A DNA stretch of 61,427 bases, from positions 1 to 61,427 of the IMG/VR virus record IMGVR_UViG_3300035670_000214; one strand, written 5' to 3'. The position numbers and the translations under genes were made by a program. Under the pieces are notes generated by a model that saw only the letters and a list, made by a program, of their open reading frames with translations, was not told the origin of the DNA and did not search any database. Positions within the stretch are counted from its first letter, which is position 1. The number at the start of each line of letters is the position of its first letter. Of the stretch, positions 3,507 through 61,427 are shown one piece after another. The DNA is from a virus. Its lineage: Duplodnaviria; Caudoviricetes.

Positions 3507-3535
3507 TTGACTTGCTGTTATTATTAGACTGTAAT
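3507..3535 (+). promoter_or_regulatory. sigma70-like promoter of the dut-nrdJ cassette
   Basis: TTGACT-N17-TGTAAT followed by the AAGGAG RBS of dut. Confidence 0.6.
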
Positions 3536-49216: not shown

Positions 49217-50206
49217 CTAGGAATAAAGGCTAGACACTGCGTCCAACCATTTCTTGTAGTCTGACTCTAGCTTATCACAGGTAGCTTGTAAAGGACAATA
49301 ATCGCAGTTGCTGAAAGTCCCTGGACTACCATCTGCTTTAAGTGTACTCGGTCTAGGTGCAAGCTTCTGTTTTGATTTCTGTTCTACCACGACTTCGTAG
49401 TAGTCGATGATACCTTGTTGAGTGATAGGTGTCCAAGTCCATTCCATACCCTCAGGTCTATCGGCAAGTATGGGTCTATACTTTAATTGTTTACCCTTAG
49501 TCCATTCTAACTCGTATCCTTGACGGAACTGTAGCAACTTCTTAACTGTAACCTTGCCCTTTGATTCACCAAACTCCAGTACATTAGTGAGCAGGTTATC
49601 CTTAGGTGGAAAGGTACGTTGTTCCCAGCCACTGCCTACTGCAAACTCCGCACGATTGGTATACCAGAGTTGGAACGGCACACCTAACTGCCAACTGTAA
49701 TGACCTGCTTGCATGAGGTGAACGAGCTTGGGTTCTAGCATTACGCCAGTATCTCTACCGGTCCATACGCTAGAGACAAGTTTAAGCTCTAGACCTACTA
49801 CTGGCTTAAACTCTTCACCTTCCATTCGGCCTAGTACAATGTCAGGTCTACCAGTAACCGCAATACCAGAGGGTGTAACCCACCTGATAGGTACTTCCTC
49901 CTCACGCTTAACAACAAGGCTTTCGCCTAAGGCTTTTATCCCAGTCTCCAATGACTTTACCCAGATATCTTCGTTGGATAGACCAGCATCAAACATAAGG
50001 CGCTTACTATCCTCGACCTGTTCGTAGCGTATACCCTCGAATCTCAGTAGGGTAGTACGGGCGCATGGACCTGCTACCTTACCGCCATCCATAATAATGC
50101 CAGTATTACCAGCACGCAATATCCCCTTCTTATCCGCCTCTTTCAGGTCATGTTCGGCTGCCATAGACTGGATGCCTGCATCGTATAGTGCATTAATATC
50201 AAGCAC
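49217..50206 (-). CDS. Cas4-like PD-(D/E)xK exonuclease
   Basis: CAR...GRPDIV...ELK...QAGHY...CDYCPLQATC. Confidence 0.8.
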   Translation of the reverse strand: MLDINALYDAGIQSMAAEHDLKEADKKGILRAGNTGIIMDGGKVAGPCARTTLLRFEGIRYEQVEDSKRLMFDAGLSNEDIWVKSLETGIKALGESLVVKREEEVPIRWVTPSGIAVTGRPDIVLGRMEGEEFKPVVGLELKLVSSVWTGRDTGVMLEPKLVHLMQAGHYSWQLGVPFQLWYTNRAEFAVGSGWEQRTFPPKDNLLTNVLEFGESKGKVTVKKLLQFRQGYELEWTKGKQLKYRPILADRPEGMEWTWTPITQQGIIDYYEVVVEQKSKQKLAPRPSTLKADGSPGTFSNCDYCPLQATCDKLESDYKKWLDAVSSLYS

Positions 50207-53933: not shown

Positions 53934-54806
53934 CTAGTGCGTCCGGGACGAAGTCATTCTTACATAGTCCTCCACTAGGTGGTCTGGGTATAGATACTCC
54001 TGGCCATAGCGTTCGCTAGGCGTAGTCTTTCGTTCTATACCTTTAGTCTTAGCTAACTTACCAAGCTCCCTGGATAGCTGCTGAGGAGTCTTAACCTTCA
54101 ACTCTGGGTATATGTTCTGCCAACCTATCACGGTCTTCCAGCTATCTAGTTCTTGCAGGCGTATGCGTGCGTCAACGTAGGCATCTTCGAGTACCCTGTA
54201 CCGTCGCACCGCCTGAGCTGCAGTATTCATGGCCGTAGCCTCACGCTTACTGCCTATCCAAGCCTTGGTACGCTCGGCCTCATTCAGCTTGCTTATCAGT
54301 AGGTGTACGTAATCGGCTAGCTTACTAGCATTGGCTCTCAGGTCTTGGTTCTCTAGGTCCAACTGACTCGCTCTAGCAGACTCGGTCCATAACTGACGAT
54401 TGATAGCCCAAGCCTCTGGGGTATTAACCAACTTTACAACCGCCTCTACTGTTTCTTTAGGCAAGAAGTGTGATGGTCTACCAGTTATTGGAATAACCTT
54501 TTTATTACGGAGAGTTGTCCTGGTTTCTTGAGTAATACGCATAAAACTAAGACTGTAACTTTTAATCAAGTGATGGATGGTTGAACTATCTACATTCAGT
54601 AGTCGCGCAATTTCAGATAAGAACATACCATCCTGTCCGTTAATCCGTAGTATGATTGCCCGCTTACCGTTATCCAGTTCCTTGTACTTTACGTTTACTG
54701 CTGACATTGTTTGCTCCTTATTGTTAATAGCCGTCTTTATAGACCTTCGGTCGCCAAAGAGATGTTCATCATCTTGTTCAGTACCCATCTTTATACCAAT
54801 TACCAC
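53934..54806 (-). CDS. Antirepressor-like DNA-binding protein (probable start MSAVN near 54707)
   Basis: N-terminal HTH (LSEIARLLNV); AWIGSKREATAMNTA motif seen in phage antirepressors. Confidence 0.65.
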   Translation of the reverse strand: MVIGIKMGTEQDDEHLFGDRRSIKTAINNKEQTMSAVNVKYKELDNGKRAIILRINGQDGMFLSEIARLLNVDSSTIHHLIKSYSLSFMRITQETRTTLRNKKVIPITGRPSHFLPKETVEAVVKLVNTPEAWAINRQLWTESARASQLDLENQDLRANASKLADYVHLLISKLNEAERTKAWIGSKREATAMNTAAQAVRRYRVLEDAYVDARIRLQELDSWKTVIGWQNIYPELKVKTPQQLSRELGKLAKTKGIERKTTPSERYGQEYLYPDHLVEDYVRMTSSRTH

Positions 54807-54975
54807 CCTTGAGTTGGAAGCTACCTAAGCTAATCAATCTATGCCATTCTGGCGCAGTACACTTAGGACACTCTTTAACCTTAGCCTGGTACTCATCTCC
54901 TTCCTTCATGCTCTGTATCAATTCTAGCTCATGGCCACAAGTCTTACATTTATACCTATAAATAGGCACCCTCAT
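54778..54975 (-). CDS. FmdB-family zinc-ribbon protein
   Basis: PIYRYKCKTCGH...CPKC...RLIS...FQLKGGNWYKDGY. Confidence 0.85.
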   Translation of the reverse strand: MRVPIYRYKCKTCGHELELIQSMKEGDEYQAKVKECPKCTAPEWHRLISLGSFQLKGGNWYKDGY

Positions 54976-55117
54976 TCTCCTTCTTTTTTTTCGTTTGATA
55001 ACTTAAATGGATTGGGTTTTCCTGCTTGTTCAGCTAGTAGATTTGTTAAACTAGCTAATACTATTTTAATATCATTTAATTGGTCTGCAATTTCTTTTAA
55101 ATTGCTGGCTTCTTTTC

Positions 55118-55405
55118 TCATGTATTATCCTCATCTTCCCAGACCATATTTTCTGGGTCGTCAGAACTAGAGAACTGTATTGAGAGTAGGTCCATAGAGT
55201 TTAACGGACTCTCGAAACGAACCACGTGGCCTTTTGGTTCAGTCACATCCATCTCCGGTTCTTCCTCGCCCATCACCTCGTCGAAGCAGGCCTCGCAGGT
55301 GCCGCTGATGAACAACTCCTTGTAGCCGAGGTCAGTGAAGACATTCTCCTCGCTGTAGGGATGCTTACAGCGCCAGCAGTTACCTCGTGGTAGATTGTAC
55401 ATCAC
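55118..55405 (-). CDS. Zinc-binding hypothetical protein
   Basis: CWRC...ISGTCEACFD. Confidence 0.6.
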   Translation of the reverse strand: MMYNLPRGNCWRCKHPYSEENVFTDLGYKELFISGTCEACFDEVMGEEEPEMDVTEPKGHVVRFESPLNSMDLLSIQFSSSDDPENMVWEDEDNT

Positions 55406-56096
55406 AGACTCCTGATGAGTATTATTAGTACTACTACGCTAACCAGTACACCAAAGCTAAGGGAGAACAACAGGTAGGCTAGTGAAATCATACGTATACC
55501 TCGTACTGTAGGGTACTGAACGAACTGTCGCATACAGCCATAGGCCAATCTTCGAGCAGCTCTTCCAGGCTATCGTATTCTATACTATCGACAGCTTCAT
55601 TGTCCAAGTTAATCAGGTGGCAGTAGAAAACTACTCGGTAGCTATTCATTATCCAACCCTCCTCGTAAGTTTAAGCTGTTCACGTTGCTTAGCTAGGAAT
55701 CCGTTAACAGCGTTGAGTGCCTCACGTTCAGTAGCGAAAGATTTCTGGCGCATACCGTACTTATCATGCCAGAGAAGTACAAGCACTACGTCATTCTGAC
55801 GCACGACCTCTGCCGACCAACCTATTAAGCTTACCATCACTTGTCTCCTGTATATCATTGGTGCCGTAGGCATACTATCGTCAGACTAGCGAAAAACTTG
55901 AGGGCTGTTTTGGGAATCCGCTTCGCGTCCAATCCTCTTTCAGAGTCCTCGAAGGTAACTGATTTGCGTCAGCTGGGGTAGTTCGTCGGGGGAGACCCCC
56001 TAGTAAACGCCCGTTTTTTCTATATTTTTTAACCAAAACTTAACTCTTTTCTCGAAATTCTAAAGAAACGGTTCGAACTTCCGATCTTCGCCTTGA

Positions 56097-57026
56097 TTGG
56101 TCGGAGGGTTCTGGATGCGAGATAGGCGGGGACAGGAAAGAAGGGTCTGCCCTAATGAAAGGTGTAAGAACCATTCTGTCCCTAGTTTTGACTTCACAAA
56201 AGATGGCTTTTACCTTCGAAAGACGGGAAAAAAGGACCGAGTGCAAAGGTATAGGTGTAAGTCCTGCGGTAAAAGATTTCACGGGACATACGGGAGGCTC
56301 ACCTATAGGCAGCGAAAGCCCGAGATAAATAAGCCCTTCGTTGAAGTATACCTATCTGGTGTAAGCCTAAGACGGACGGCACACATCCTAAAGGTAAACA
56401 GAAAGACCTTAGCAAGGCGAATACTAACCCAAGGGGCTATGGCCAGAAAAAGCCACGAAGATAGACTCTTAAAATCCGACGACTTTAAAGGACGGAACTA
56501 TTCCTTCGACGATATGATTACAAAGGTCGGTAGCAAATACTTTCCCGTATCGTTATCAATAGCGGTAAATGAGGATACAGGCAAAATCGTAGACATCAAA
56601 GTTTCAAGAATCAATGCCTACGGTTATCCCGCCAGAAATTCTTCCAAGGTCCCTGGCCTTACCAAAGTCCCAACCGACCTACACAACCAGGAAATGATAA
56701 ATGTGCTTTCCGCCATTAAAATTGCCTCTAAAGGCACAAAATTCTTTCTTCATACGGATAAAGCCAACAACATAGTATCGACAGGACGAATCGCCCTTGG
56801 CAAAAATTTTGTTCATAAACCTGTGAAGGCCCCTAAGAAGGGCGAACAAAGAGCGGGTTTTTCCGCTATGTTCTGGCTGAATCATGTTTGTGCTAGGATA
56901 AGGGCCGACTTAGCAAGGATGGGAAGGTCCAGTTGGTGCTTTAGCCGATCGATGGATTCCCTACAATCGCACCTTGATATGTTCATGGAGTTCTTCAATA
57001 ATAGACAGTATAGAATAGCCTCTTGA
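56097..57026 (+). CDS. IS1-like transposase (Zn ribbon, HTH, DDE-type core)
   Basis: CPNERC...QRYRCKSCGKRF; SGVSLRRTAHILKVNRKTL; SFDDM, LHTD, LNH...R. Confidence 0.85.
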   Translation: MVGGFWMRDRRGQERRVCPNERCKNHSVPSFDFTKDGFYLRKTGKKDRVQRYRCKSCGKRFHGTYGRLTYRQRKPEINKPFVEVYLSGVSLRRTAHILKVNRKTLARRILTQGAMARKSHEDRLLKSDDFKGRNYSFDDMITKVGSKYFPVSLSIAVNEDTGKIVDIKVSRINAYGYPARNSSKVPGLTKVPTDLHNQEMINVLSAIKIASKGTKFFLHTDKANNIVSTGRIALGKNFVHKPVKAPKKGEQRAGFSAMFWLNHVCARIRADLARMGRSSWCFSRSMDSLQSHLDMFMEFFNNRQYRIAS

Positions 57027-57057
57027 TTGCGGTTGTGTTTGTTTTTATGAAGTCTTA

Positions 57058-57294
57058 TTAATAAGACATTAGGTCTTTCCAATCATTTCGACGTTTTTCA
57101 TCTGCCCATATAAATACACTCTGGTCGTATTCCTTAGGGCAGCCATGCGGTTTTGTTACGGCACCACGGAGGTCTTTTGTAGCAAAAGGAATCCACTGGT
57201 CAAGGATTTTGCCGCAGCGCTCGCAAGGGTCTGGGGTCAGATCAAGGTCATATTTTGCTGCCCATTTTTTGACTGGAACATTCGGATAAATCAT
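57058..57294 (-). CDS. IS passenger protein (CxxC...HxC)
   Basis: Inside the TIRs; GAGGA RBS; own sigma28-like promoter at 57329-57356. Confidence 0.65.
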   Translation of the reverse strand: MIYPNVPVKKWAAKYDLDLTPDPCERCGKILDQWIPFATKDLRGAVTKPHGCPKEYDQSVFIWADEKRRNDWKDLMSY

Positions 57295-57540
57295 AAATAT
57301 AAAATCCTCTGATGGTTTATTCTACTGCTTATCGGAAAAATTAAGAATAAACTTTTTAAAAGTTCAACCTGGAAGAAAAAGTCCTTATAGAAAACCCCCG
57401 TTGTCTACCCCAGCTGATGATTTGCGATTTCCCTTCTCTTACCCTTACCGCCTGTAAGAATTAGTCGAAAGACAAATGCATAGACCGTGCCAATTTGACG
57501 CGGTTGCGTCTGGCTAAAGGTTAAAAATATCCTAGCCCAT

Positions 57541-57568
57541 CTATCGGCAGAAGTGAAATAAAACTTAA
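57541..57568 (-). promoter_or_regulatory. sigma28/FliA-like promoter (leftward)
   Basis: TTAAGTTT-N12-GCCGATAG against consensus TAAAGTTT-N11-GCCGATAA. Confidence 0.6.
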
Positions 57569-57695
57569 GTTTGAAGTATAATGTACGGATATTATTAATC
57601 ATTTATTGACCTGTAAAATTACTTTGAATTTTCTGACCCCAGTTGTCGATGAGTTCATTGTGGTCAGTGAGATAAACAACAACGGGGTAATTACA

Positions 57696-57968
57696 ATGGA
57701 AAACTATAATGGATATCAGAATAGGGAGACATATGATGTGGTGCTGTGGTGTCAGAATGACGAGGGTCTCTATCATATGTTTAGGGACCAAGACGCCCAG
57801 ACCATTAAAATTCAGTTTCAGGAGTGGGCGGATCAGTCAGTGACTGAACCCATGGAGCTCACCGAGGAGCTACGCTCGGTGCTCCGCGATATCGGCTCTC
57901 TCTGGCGGGTCAATTGGTACGAGGTCTCCGACGCGTTAACAGACGAAACAGAGGAGGAATCGGTATGA
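57696..57968 (+). CDS. Early-region conserved phage protein (YNG..N.ET..V.LW..ND type)
   Basis: MENYNGYQNRETYDVVLWCQNDEGLY; GGGG RBS. Confidence 0.65.
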   Translation: MENYNGYQNRETYDVVLWCQNDEGLYHMFRDQDAQTIKIQFQEWADQSVTEPMELTEELRSVLRDIGSLWRVNWYEVSDALTDETEEESV

Positions 57969-58315
57969 ATAGGAAACAGATGAAAGAGCTAGGAAAAGCG
58001 ATGAACGAATTGGAACGATACCGTGCACCCGCCGTCCGGTTTGTTGTGAAGCGCGGTAAGACCGTTGGACAACCGGAGCACCGCTGGGTCGTTTGGGATA
58101 CCCGGTTCCAGGAATGGATGATAGCTGGGGAGAACTATAGGGTGATAAAAAACACGGCAGACGGTTGGAACGTGGAAGAGATAAAGAGACCTCAATTGGT
58201 TTTGGTGGTTTCCAATTCTTACGATTGGTATCAATTGACGGTCAGGAAATTAAGTCGTGTTTTACCTAGGCAGAATGATAGGAAAAATCAGGTGCATTTA
58301 AGTTTGGTCCGGTGA
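57965..58315 (+). CDS. Early-region hypothetical protein
   Basis: GAGGAGG RBS before ATG 57965. Confidence 0.5.
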   Translation: MNRKQMKELGKAMNELERYRAPAVRFVVKRGKTVGQPEHRWVVWDTRFQEWMIAGENYRVIKNTADGWNVEEIKRPQLVLVVSNSYDWYQLTVRKLSRVLPRQNDRKNQVHLSLVR

Positions 58316-58325
58316 TTCCCGAAAA
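58298..58325 (+). promoter_or_regulatory. sigma28-like promoter
   Basis: TTAAGTTT-N12-CCCGAAAA upstream of 58376. Confidence 0.45.
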
Positions 58326-58375
58326 GTCTTATATCAGGTCGGTGATGGCACCGGCCAAGAACAAGGAGACCTAAG

Positions 58376-58564
58376 ATGTTTCAGCACAACGATATCATCA
58401 GTGGAGACCAAGAATTCCTTAAAGAATGGCTAGGACTAGAAAAAGGCGCGGCCAGCTGTTTCTCTGACGGCTTTCTGTTCATCGTGCAGCGTCAGAACGG
58501 TCACTGGGTGACCCTTAAGGCCTTCGACCTCAAAATTGAAACCGATATCCTAGGAGGGAAATAA
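58376..58564 (+). CDS. Early-region hypothetical protein
   Basis: AAGGAG RBS. Confidence 0.55.
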   Translation: MFQHNDIISGDQEFLKEWLGLEKGAASCFSDGFLFIVQRQNGHWVTLKAFDLKIETDILGGK

Positions 58565-58565
58565 G

Positions 58566-58886
58566 ATGAGTATTCAGATTATTACCTGGTATGATACCGT
58601 CAGTCCCGAGTCAGCGGAGCAGGGTGAGTATGAGAGTACCGGAAACGACGAGCGGGTCTATCGGTTTGATCCGGTTGAATTGGCTGAGGCTGTCGCTGAG
58701 TTCCGGTCCATGGTTGAGCAAGGGGCTTGGGAAACGACTGATATCCGCGTGAATGAGGTCCTGTACTCTGCCGACCCGTCGCTGGACTATAGGACAGGAC
58801 ACGAGGACAGCGATTGTCTCGTGCTGCACATCGACGACCCTGAACTTCGCAAAAAGGCCCAGGCTCTCATAGACTCCTGGGACTAA
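58566..58886 (+). CDS. Acidic early-region protein (Y..V.PESAE.G motif)
   Basis: AGGAGG RBS; motif common in phage early genes. Confidence 0.6.
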   Translation: MSIQIITWYDTVSPESAEQGEYESTGNDERVYRFDPVELAEAVAEFRSMVEQGAWETTDIRVNEVLYSADPSLDYRTGHEDSDCLVLHIDDPELRKKAQALIDSWD

Positions 58887-59293
58887 GAGACAGCCCCCCT
58901 GAAGTCGTGTCTTAATAGACACGCCACGGCCCCGTTGGCAGACGCTGACGGGGTCTTTTAGTTTTAGACCTAGCTCAATCCACCGCCCCGCCAATTTAGC
59001 GCCGCGCCCTTTCGACCGGACCATCCCATCGCCGTCGGGAACTTCCCCTCCACCACCACCACACCACGCCTCACGTGTAAGCAGCGACAAGATGGTCGCC
59101 AAGTGGGGTCAACCGACGCGCTGAAGAGAATTTCCGGGCACACACTCGGGGATAATCGGGGGCAAAAGGTCAATAATATTAGGCTGTTAGAGGAATAGAT
59201 ACGAGGGGTAATAGTAGGTGCTAAGTTACGAATATCACTAGCATTAATTAGCAGTACCAAATGTCAGCCAAAAACCCGGCCCAAAAGTACTAA

Positions 59294-59322
59294 GCCCCCT
59301 GCTAGCAACTGCTAGAGGGGGC
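59294..59322 (-). terminator. GC-rich hairpin, terminator-like for a leftward transcript
   Basis: GCCCCCT-g-CTAGC-AACT-GCTAG-AGGGGGC; followed by TTAGTACTTTT on the minus strand. Confidence 0.5.
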
Positions 59323-59486
59323 GTATAGGTGCTTGCTTCGGCCTCTCCCTCGGCCTCGTCTCTCTCTACCTCCCCTCTTCGGGGTAGCTATCGAGCTCCT
59401 CGGCCTCGGGGTACTACCTATTAACTAGGTACTAGCAACCAGCCCAGTACCAGATAACGACACTAGTTGTCTCGTTCTGGTAACAT

Positions 59487-61123: not shown

Positions 61124-61427
61124 ATGACCACACTGTCCCCAGAAATGCTAGCCAAAGCTGCCGAGCGTTATAGACGTCTTGCTTTGCAGGACGCCTTTGA
61201 CCCTCACAACCTAAGCACCAGACCCACGGCAGTACAGCAACAAGTATTCGAGGAGTTTGGCCAAAGAAGCCAACAGTGGATAGTAGCGTCCAACCAATCG
61301 GGTAAGACGCAAACCTGCTCCCGGCTTACAGCTTGGGTGCTTGCTGAGAACCATCCACATTGGTCCAGACCCAAAAGCTGGAACAAGGAACCTCTTCTTC
61401 TTCTCGTCTGCGGACGTACTGGAAAGC
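61124..61427 (+). CDS. terL: Terminase large subunit, 5' part
   Basis: MTTLSPEMLAKAAERY...PTAVQ...IVASNQSGKT; 59 codons before 61301, in frame with base 1. Confidence 0.88.
   Translation, partial: MTTLSPEMLAKAAERYRRLALQDAFDPHNLSTRPTAVQQQVFEEFGQRSQQWIVASNQSGKTQTCSRLTAWVLAENHPHWSRPKSWNKEPLLLLVCGRTGK
61301..61427. repeat. 127-bp terminal direct repeat (copy 2)
   Basis: Identical to 1-127. Confidence 0.95.

Follow-up and report, generated by a model that had tools for sequence, protein, structure and literature searches.

We analysed a whole IMG/VR virus record (IMGVR_UViG_3300035670_000214; Duplodnaviria, Caudoviricetes), 61,427 bp long and scored 100% complete, which we refer to at its full length as the window. 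Positions 55969-57417 are, with a probability of about 85%, an intact and recently transposed insertion sequence (IS) of a large, uncurated clade related to IS1. The element is 1,449 bp long and bounded by perfect 13-nt inverted ends, followed on both outer sides by perfect 9-bp direct repeats; between the ends lie one plus-strand open reading frame (ORF) for a transposase and a short convergent ORF on the minus strand (Table 1). An earlier note on this DNA, made from its letters and ORF translations, had described an IS at 55960..57426 with defined ends and a 9-bp target site duplication (TSD), a single-ORF IS1-like transposase with Asn where a third acidic residue would be expected, ends that do not start with the GG of IS1, and a convergent ORF with a CxxC motif; each of these features was recovered in our analysis. 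We file the element as an IS1-related sister clade rather than as a proven member of the IS1 family because the curated model score, the catalytic Glu and the GG ends all failed.

Ends, target duplication and a second copy

A 13-nt inverted pair is unremarkable when taken alone, because similar pairs are common in random sequences: eight perfect pairs spaced 700-5000 nt apart occur in the window, compared with a mean of ~5 per sequence in 30 Markov-1 random sequences. Among these eight pairs, only that of the IS is flanked by a direct repeat (9 nt), and in the 30 random sequences no inverted pair had a flanking repeat of ≥7 nt. The exact 13-mer TCAGCTGGGGTAG is present in the window at the two IS ends only. 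Inside the 13 perfect pairs, a CGGGGG run stands at both ends, offset by one base, as an imperfect continuation of the repeat. The GC (guanine plus cytosine) content of the element is 43.4%, that of the phage 47.7%. Recent transposition, which the earlier note had deduced from the perfect duplication, is upheld: the insertion is real and recent.

A second copy of the element on a metagenome contig (L034) starts with the same 13-nt terminus and thereby confirms the left end independently. This contig encodes a transposase 94% identical in amino acids to that of the window, and its DNA matches the window in a single blastn segment of 1,002 nt (91.0% nucleotide identity) and in no other part. In L034 the 13-mer TCAGCTGGGGTAG occupies 3510-3522 and precedes the transposase gene by as much as it does in the window; to the left of it, right up to the first T of the terminus, the two sequences are unrelated. 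Among the 113 loci compared, only L034 and the window's own copy contain this 13-mer. The flank of L034 encodes a secretin (Pfam, E 2.2e-25) and has a GC content of 31.7%, versus 44.3% for the IS part of the contig and the higher value of the phage; the same IS thus also occurs in a genome of bacterial type whose composition differs markedly, in a Gram-negative-type context that is unrelated to the phage. The suggestion that the IS marks the host of the phage is weakly founded, as the only close copy stands in this contig with its deviating flanks. Single-protein scans of one genome per species returned neither a close copy of the transposase nor a relative of the L034 secretin.

Beyond the transposase stop codon, L034 and the window share no DNA. 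The contig ends before any right repeat, so that what follows the gene there, cargo or host DNA, is not distinguishable. Four minus-strand ORFs (67, 99, 86 and 114 aa) lie in this part (L034:4568-5850); they are unrelated to the convergent ORF of the window, and one of them has a weak phage-family match (phrog_8017, E 5e-4).

Table 1 Features of the insertion sequence and its landing site in the window.
Feature	Position	Strand	Remarks
Left TSD copy	55960-55968		TGATTTGCG, 9 bp, perfect direct repeat
Right TSD copy	57418-57426		TGATTTGCG, 9 bp, perfect direct repeat
Left inverted repeat (IRL)	55969-55981	+	TCAGCTGGGGTAG, 13 nt, 100% complementary to the right inverted repeat
Right inverted repeat (IRR)	57405-57417	-	CTACCCCAGCTGA on the plus strand, perfect reverse complement of TCAGCTGGGGTAG
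Whole insertion sequence	55969-57417	+	1,449 bp; one match in the 61,427-bp record
Conserved module (5' leader and transposase gene)	56025-57026	+	Common to L034, 91.0% nucleotide identity; homology ends exactly at the stop codon
Transposase gene	56115-57026	+	303 aa from the most likely start, ATG; 309 aa if started at the upstream TTG (56097)
Palindrome	57052-57067		GTCTTATTAATAAGAC, 16 nt, perfect; between the convergent ORFs, overlaps the passenger stop codon
Passenger ORF	57058-57294	-	78 aa, convergent; C24-x2-C27, H50-x-C52; putative gene, an ORFan (an ORF without known relatives)
65-codon ORF, probably non-coding	57405-57602	-	Runs from phage DNA into the right IS end; precise excision would give 87 codons with the stop at 55881

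The genome that carries the element had been called a non-integrating phage. In a PHROG scan covering 32 ORFs of the phage, matches were obtained for portal, ribonucleotide reductase, tail proteins, a lysin-type internal virion protein, helicase, a RuvC-like resolvase and DNA polymerase, whereas the sole match in the category 'integration and excision' was the IS transposase itself. Tyrosine-recombinase and resolvase (serine recombinase) domains were absent from all six frames of the complete record, while the same models matched 14 of 14 and 12 of 14 control genomes, respectively. The claim thus stands as consistent with the recombinase search rather than as proven. An alternative would be that the phage is temperate and gained the IS as a resident prophage or plasmid-prophage, the usual route for IS into phages. 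This would fit the statement, in a passage of PMC8136500, that it is mainly temperate phages in which IS occur, and the numerous small early ORFs without assigned function leave some room for it, given the 32 ORFs scanned. We nevertheless consider it improbable in view of the missing recombinase domains and of the phage's own DNA polymerase, helicase, ribonucleotide reductase and internal-virion-type lysin, a gene set that appears typical of lytic podovirus-like phages.

Transposase fold and family placement

The transposase most likely starts at the ATG at 56115, with GGAGGG 7 nt upstream of it, and the database record of the protein likewise has 303 aa. It consists of an N-terminal Cys zinc ribbon, a helix-turn-helix (HTH) region and an RNase-H-fold catalytic domain with D132, D215 and N256 (plus R263). 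An AlphaFold2 (AF2) model built with an alignment of 66 sequences (predicted local distance difference test, pLDDT, 91.7; predicted template modelling score, pTM, 0.88) has the strand and helix order of RNase H: beta hairpins (27-56) and helices (69-120) form the N-terminus, followed by strands at 128-138 (with D132), 140-152, 157-165 and 210-214 (after which D215 stands) and a helix at 253-265 (with N256). Foldseek returned 30 matches with E values of ≤ 0.001, and the ones listed belong to DDE transposases and retroviral integrases, with ISCth4, Mos1 and HIV integrase as the best. In the predicted structure, the three catalytic positions fall where an RNase-H-like fold has them: strand 1, just behind strand 4, and the next helix. 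The N-terminal zinc finger and HTH correspond to those of InsA, and the catalytic domain is homologous to that of IS1-family transposases.

The family around this protein is large. A word search found only 6 protein clusters among 5.8 billion that resemble it; a profile built from six close relatives, however, retrieved 2,294 representatives (counted at 50% clustering) at E ≤ 0.001 from 1.84 billion proteins, 320 of them at E ≤ 1e-30. The 66-member alignment consists mostly of near-full-length relatives picked by hand from these profile matches; C12, C48, C51, D132, D215 and R263 are invariant in it. The best match of the window protein is the NCBIfam IS1 family model (NF033558; E 2.6e-15, residues 35-163 of the 303-aa protein, corresponding to 41-169 of the 309-aa ORF queried), and this model matches 65 of the 66 relatives at E ≤ 0.001. 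The best E among them (2.7e-18) is probably far from what a score of 100 bits would give. With the IS1_IS1595_Zn model, the protein again stays below threshold (23 vs 28 bits). In searches of phages, tblastn against 50,697 GenBank phages found no relative of the transposase, and a scan of IMG/VR returned three matches only, all at the level of the zinc finger.

When the 66-member profile was aligned with hhalign to a protein that NCBI names an IS1-family transposase, from an Emticicia oligotrophica plasmid (WP_015026368.1, L114), the probability reached 99.2% (E 2.6e-19) over query residues 43-293, and the alignment includes both Asp and the C-terminal Arg ladder. The plasmid protein is likewise encoded by a single ORF; it differs in that it keeps the Glu (E194), has 231 aa and shares 23.5% identity. 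The window protein is ~70 aa longer through insertions in the catalytic domain.

Compared with E. coli IS1A (K-12, L115), the element has the same architecture of a zinc finger and HTH N-terminus followed by an RNase-H-fold catalytic domain, a 9-bp target duplication, and TG at end positions 6-7. The C-terminal motif R-x2-LAR-x-GR-x-S-x2-FS-x-S is nearly letter-for-letter that of IS1, at the same spacing from the third catalytic position. Target duplications of IS1 measure 8-9 bp; within the clade we found 9 bp in the window, 9 bp in L037 and 8 nt in L123. There are also clear differences: Asn replaces the catalytic Glu of the D-D-E triad; one 303-codon ORF stands in place of the separate insA and insB of the IS1A annotation, which are joined by a frameshift; the model score is about half the curated cut-off; extra DNA with a passenger ORF is present; and the ends start with TC (TCAGCTG, without GG at positions 1-2), whereas the IS1A end starts with GGTGATGCTGCC (GGTGATG). 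The -1 frameshift of insA/insB defines classical IS1 only, and ISfinder keeps a single-ORF subgroup without it. Two ISfinder subgroups of IS1, 'single ORF' and 'ISMhu11', may already hold relatives of the element; a full-text literature search found no mention of 'ISMhu11'. For the ends of IS1, the consensus GGnnnTG is given in a section of PMC6807381.

A different assignment, to the IS1595 family, is suggested by several traits. This family was reportedly described by Siguier and colleagues in 2009 as having a zinc finger at the N-terminus and, in many members, Asn at the third catalytic position (DDNK), with passenger genes likewise frequent, and the element shares both the Asn and the cargo layout. 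The likeness extends to the N-terminal region: hhalign against an IS1595-like transposase of the ISBwe1 family gave a probability of 96.3% for residues 7-95 only, which is the zinc-finger/HTH part, and tblastn against plasmids placed IS1595-named genes under the N-terminal third of the transposase. The catalytic domains of the two, in contrast, do not align, yet the protein aligns over nearly its full length with an IS1-family transposase. The IS1595 models match few relatives (2 of 66 for NCBIfam, 1 of 66 for Pfam DDE_Tnp_IS1595), against the 65 matched by the NCBIfam IS1 model. The residue at +7 from the Asn is Arg and not Lys, and the 9-bp duplication agrees with IS1 and not with IS1595, whose target duplications measure 8 bp. 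We therefore regard membership in IS1595 as unlikely and keep the element with the IS1-related clade.

The assignment of N256 to the Glu position rests on spacing. In E. coli InsB the Glu is followed by the Arg ladder as E126-x6-R-x4-R-x2-R-K, E194 of the Emticicia protein has the same spacing, and the window protein reads N256-x6-R263-x4-R268-x2-R271; an S-x2-FS-x-S tail after the ladder is common to all three. Because of this identical spacing and the shared tail, we place N256 at the IS1 Glu position. The hhalign alignment put a 3-residue gap into this helix and paired the IS1 Glu with C259; judged from the sequence, the ungapped register is better supported. The AF2 model places N256 at the start of the helix after strand 5. 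At this position, the 66 relatives have Asn in 63 cases, Asp in two and Gly in one. A regular expression found the motif in 150 of 160 retrieved proteins, with Asn in 128 and Glu in none, the other letters being mostly register slips of the pattern. Since 63 of the 66 relatives have Asn and the best 150 include no Glu, Asn is the family's normal state and not a lesion.

It could still be asked whether a protein without an acidic residue at its third catalytic position is dead, in which case the element would have been moved in trans, or the gene, located as it is in an early regulatory region of the phage, would have been taken over as a DNA-binding regulator. We find this quite unlikely. The Asn is conserved in a family of thousands, in which the two Asp and R263 are invariant; relatives occur in multiple copies with conserved ends in one genome; and the element itself has perfect ends and a perfect duplication. 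The fresh duplication argues for an active D-D-N enzyme of IS1-like type and, together with the multi-copy relatives, is the reason why we infer a catalytically active D-D-N triad.

Ends of relatives and the cargo layout

We surveyed the ends of 17 loci with near-full-length matches to the transposase. At seven of them (L006, L007, L014, L037, L041, L042 and L044), inverted repeats of 13-29 nt bracket the gene and share the core nnA(A/G/T)CTG, into which the TCAGCTG of the window fits. One further locus (L010) has an unrelated 36-nt repeat, and no inverted repeats were found at the other nine, several of which are short or cut contigs; L034 lacks its right side. The concern that homologous transposases might not carry such termini, raised in the earlier note, is thereby answered: L034 has the identical 13-nt terminus and distant relatives share its core. 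A 9-bp duplication, GGCGAGCGG, is present at L037 if the ends are set 2 nt outside the repeat. In the chromosome of a Bacteriovoracaceae metagenome-assembled genome (G001; L116-L127), 16 matches to a related 1,077-bp element were found, six of which (the query copy and five others) cover the element end to end with conserved TAAACTGCTCCC ends. These six copies are 83-100% identical, or 84% at most without the query copy; the matches as a whole give the impression of an old expansion within this clade.

The convergent passenger ORF is located in the 391 bp that separate the transposase stop codon from the right IS end, and AGAGGA, a plausible ribosome-binding site, stands 11 nt upstream of its ATG. 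The earlier note had called it a cargo gene. An ORF at this place is present and the layout recurs in relatives, as shown by two further elements with convergent minus-strand ORFs between the transposase gene and the right repeat: L037:1804-2094 encodes 96 aa with two CxxC pairs (a zinc ribbon) and a hydrophobic, membrane-type tail, and L041:3966-4571 encodes a membrane-type protein of 201 aa. The status of the window ORF as a gene is less well founded, as it is an ORFan without a confident fold, and we consider the odds that it is a real gene about even. No match was found in Pfam, NCBIfam, PHROG or PADLOC, and an Atlas feature/structure search gave low-confidence leads of the 'zinc ribbon' type only. 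The palindrome that lies between the transposase and passenger ORFs may act as a stop signal in both directions; the consensus scan called no terminator there. A layout in which an IS carries passenger genes is termed a transporter IS (tIS) in a section of PMC7986276. The element resembles a tIS in having a non-transposition ORF between transposase gene and right end, in the same layout as L037 and L041; it differs in that its passenger is a putative 78-codon ORFan, and the close copy L034 has entirely different DNA after the stop codon.

In folding, the 162-nt 5' end does not surpass its shuffled versions (z +1.29) and so gives no sign of a structured leader, and the two weak minus-strand terminator-like sites called inside the element by the consensus scan equal the shuffle expectation. 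No tRNA-like gene was detected, either in the window with ARAGORN or in 55500-57900 with Rfam at E ≤ 1.

Landing site, phage population and meaning

The insertion lies in a divergent early control region of ~370 bp, at a point that precedes the first leftward gene by about 90-130 bp; the first ORF of the leftward block ends at 55873, and the rightward genes start at ~57606-57697. For the first rightward ORF, the PHROG match begins at its residue 30, beside an internal ATG. The consensus scan picked up promoter-like sites at 57617-57589 on the minus strand and 57553-57582 on the plus strand, to be read with the reservation that the promoter type of the host may differ; it did not pick up the leftward promoter that had been proposed at 57541-57568. 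Leftward transcripts, should they begin on the right side of the IS, would read the passenger in sense and run antisense through the transposase gene. Removal of the IS had been said to extend the minus-strand ORF that begins at 57602 to 87 codons. The arithmetic is correct, and its standing as a gene is not supported: in a protein search with the 61-aa phage-encoded part, the restored 87-codon form was absent and only the interrupted 65-aa form was on record. This ORF overlaps the promoter-like sites and is probably non-coding in both its 65- and 87-codon forms.

Elsewhere in the early genes, a small minus-strand ORF (54778-54975) with two CxxC pairs matches FmdB-like zinc-ribbon regulator families (phrog_1076, E 9e-6), and its neighbour, an ORF of 290 aa at 53934-54806, matches the phage transcriptional regulator family phrog_4936 (E 1.9e-13).

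The stretch is present in four sequencing runs of one study, three of which may be the record's own source. Single contigs from two runs, of 15.5 and 61.3 kb and at depths of 18 and 74, cross both junctions; one run holds 55% of the sampled words, at low depth, in pieces of both IS and flanks. The IS-bearing phage is the form assembled in all four sampled runs. In run X2, a Logan contig from a separate assembly, 61,331 bases long, spans 54000-59400 without a break. In the IMG/VR record, positions 1-127 and 61301-61427 are identical over exactly 127 nt, and since the length of the Logan contig corresponds to 61,300 unique bases with an overlap of 31 nt, the two assemblies close one and the same circle. 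The 'direct terminal repeat' of the record consequently looks like a circular-assembly overlap and not like measured physical ends; we take 127 and 31 to be assembler word sizes. That the contig is a chimera of phage DNA and a bacterial IS, as its origin from metagenome assembly and from a single study might suggest, is very improbable, because a chimeric joint would not leave phage sequence duplicated over 9 bp on either side and because the separate Logan assembly crosses both junctions at even depth, with no loose ends at the IS.

Several results weigh against our interpretation of the element as an intact, recently transposed member of an IS1-related clade. Regarding the family, the protein misses the curated IS1 cut-off (56.9 vs 100 bits, NCBIfam NF033558) and that of Pfam HTH_Tnp_IS1 (18.1 vs 24.9 bits), none of the 66 relatives matches the Pfam IS1 catalytic-domain model, and E. 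coli InsB by itself gives a weak hhalign match (probability 15.7%, E 0.0017). Regarding the ends, the right one is seen in the phage copy alone, since the L034 contig stops before its right repeat. A clean target duplication is absent from the other six of the seven end-bearing relatives, and among the eight end-bearing copies in G001 a duplication is found only at L123 (8 nt) and, in imperfect form, at L119. The passenger ORF found only itself among 5.8 billion clusters, and its AF2 model, computed from a single sequence, has a pLDDT of 45 and no confident fold.

An empty site, which the earlier note had proposed to look for, was found neither in phage relatives nor in the contigs of the four runs, and this also counts against the interpretation. 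In the contigs, no joint bypasses the IS and its boundaries show no loose ends, in a comparison of contigs only, which a minority IS-free form of the phage could escape. Scans of IMG/VR with neighbouring proteins returned the record itself only, and blastn of 55500-57900 against the 50,697 GenBank phages gave no match. A scan with the DNA polymerase found one close phage relative (L129, 76% amino-acid identity) and one distant one (L130, 40%). L129, an IMG/VR contig of 13,707 bases, has a helicase 83% and neighbouring proteins 55-80% identical to those of the phage; it starts inside the homologue of window 49217-50206, so that its early region is missing. L130 has no recognisable early genes.

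How the element arrived can be pictured from its parts. The zinc ribbon and HTH region, by analogy with the family, would bind the 13-nt terminal repeats, whose core across the clade is nnAGCTG, and the RNase-H-fold domain with D132, D215 and Asn256 for the usual Glu would cut and join the DNA. A 9-bp staggered cut of the target would then give rise to the duplication of TGATTTGCG. The element would have jumped from a bacterial genome, presumably that of the host cell, into replicating phage DNA, bringing along ~390 bp downstream of the transposase gene with the convergent 78-codon ORF in what would be a cargo-carrying tIS layout, and it may have altered phage transcription at the landing site.

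In a more far-reaching view, the clade with Asn in place of Glu would form a large sister family of IS1 that has gone unrecognised and whose D-D-N enzymes are fully active, and the IS would have given the phage a new small zinc-binding gene under early leftward transcription, fixed through a benefit of the cargo or of altered expression. We regard this as a speculative proposal with rather low odds; if true, it would provide a worked example of a virulent phage gaining genes via a tIS.

The element opens no new category. Its value is that of a specimen from a clade missed by current curated models, for which it provides defined ends: both the ends and the duplication are perfect, the gene is intact, and a second copy exists elsewhere. 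Transposases are called 'very rare in virulent phages' in a passage of PMC8136500, which makes it unusual to see an IS fixed in a lytic-type phage, here within the early control region. The insertion shows one route by which foreign DNA enters lytic-type phages, and provides a natural marker that links the phage to bacteria with the same IS.

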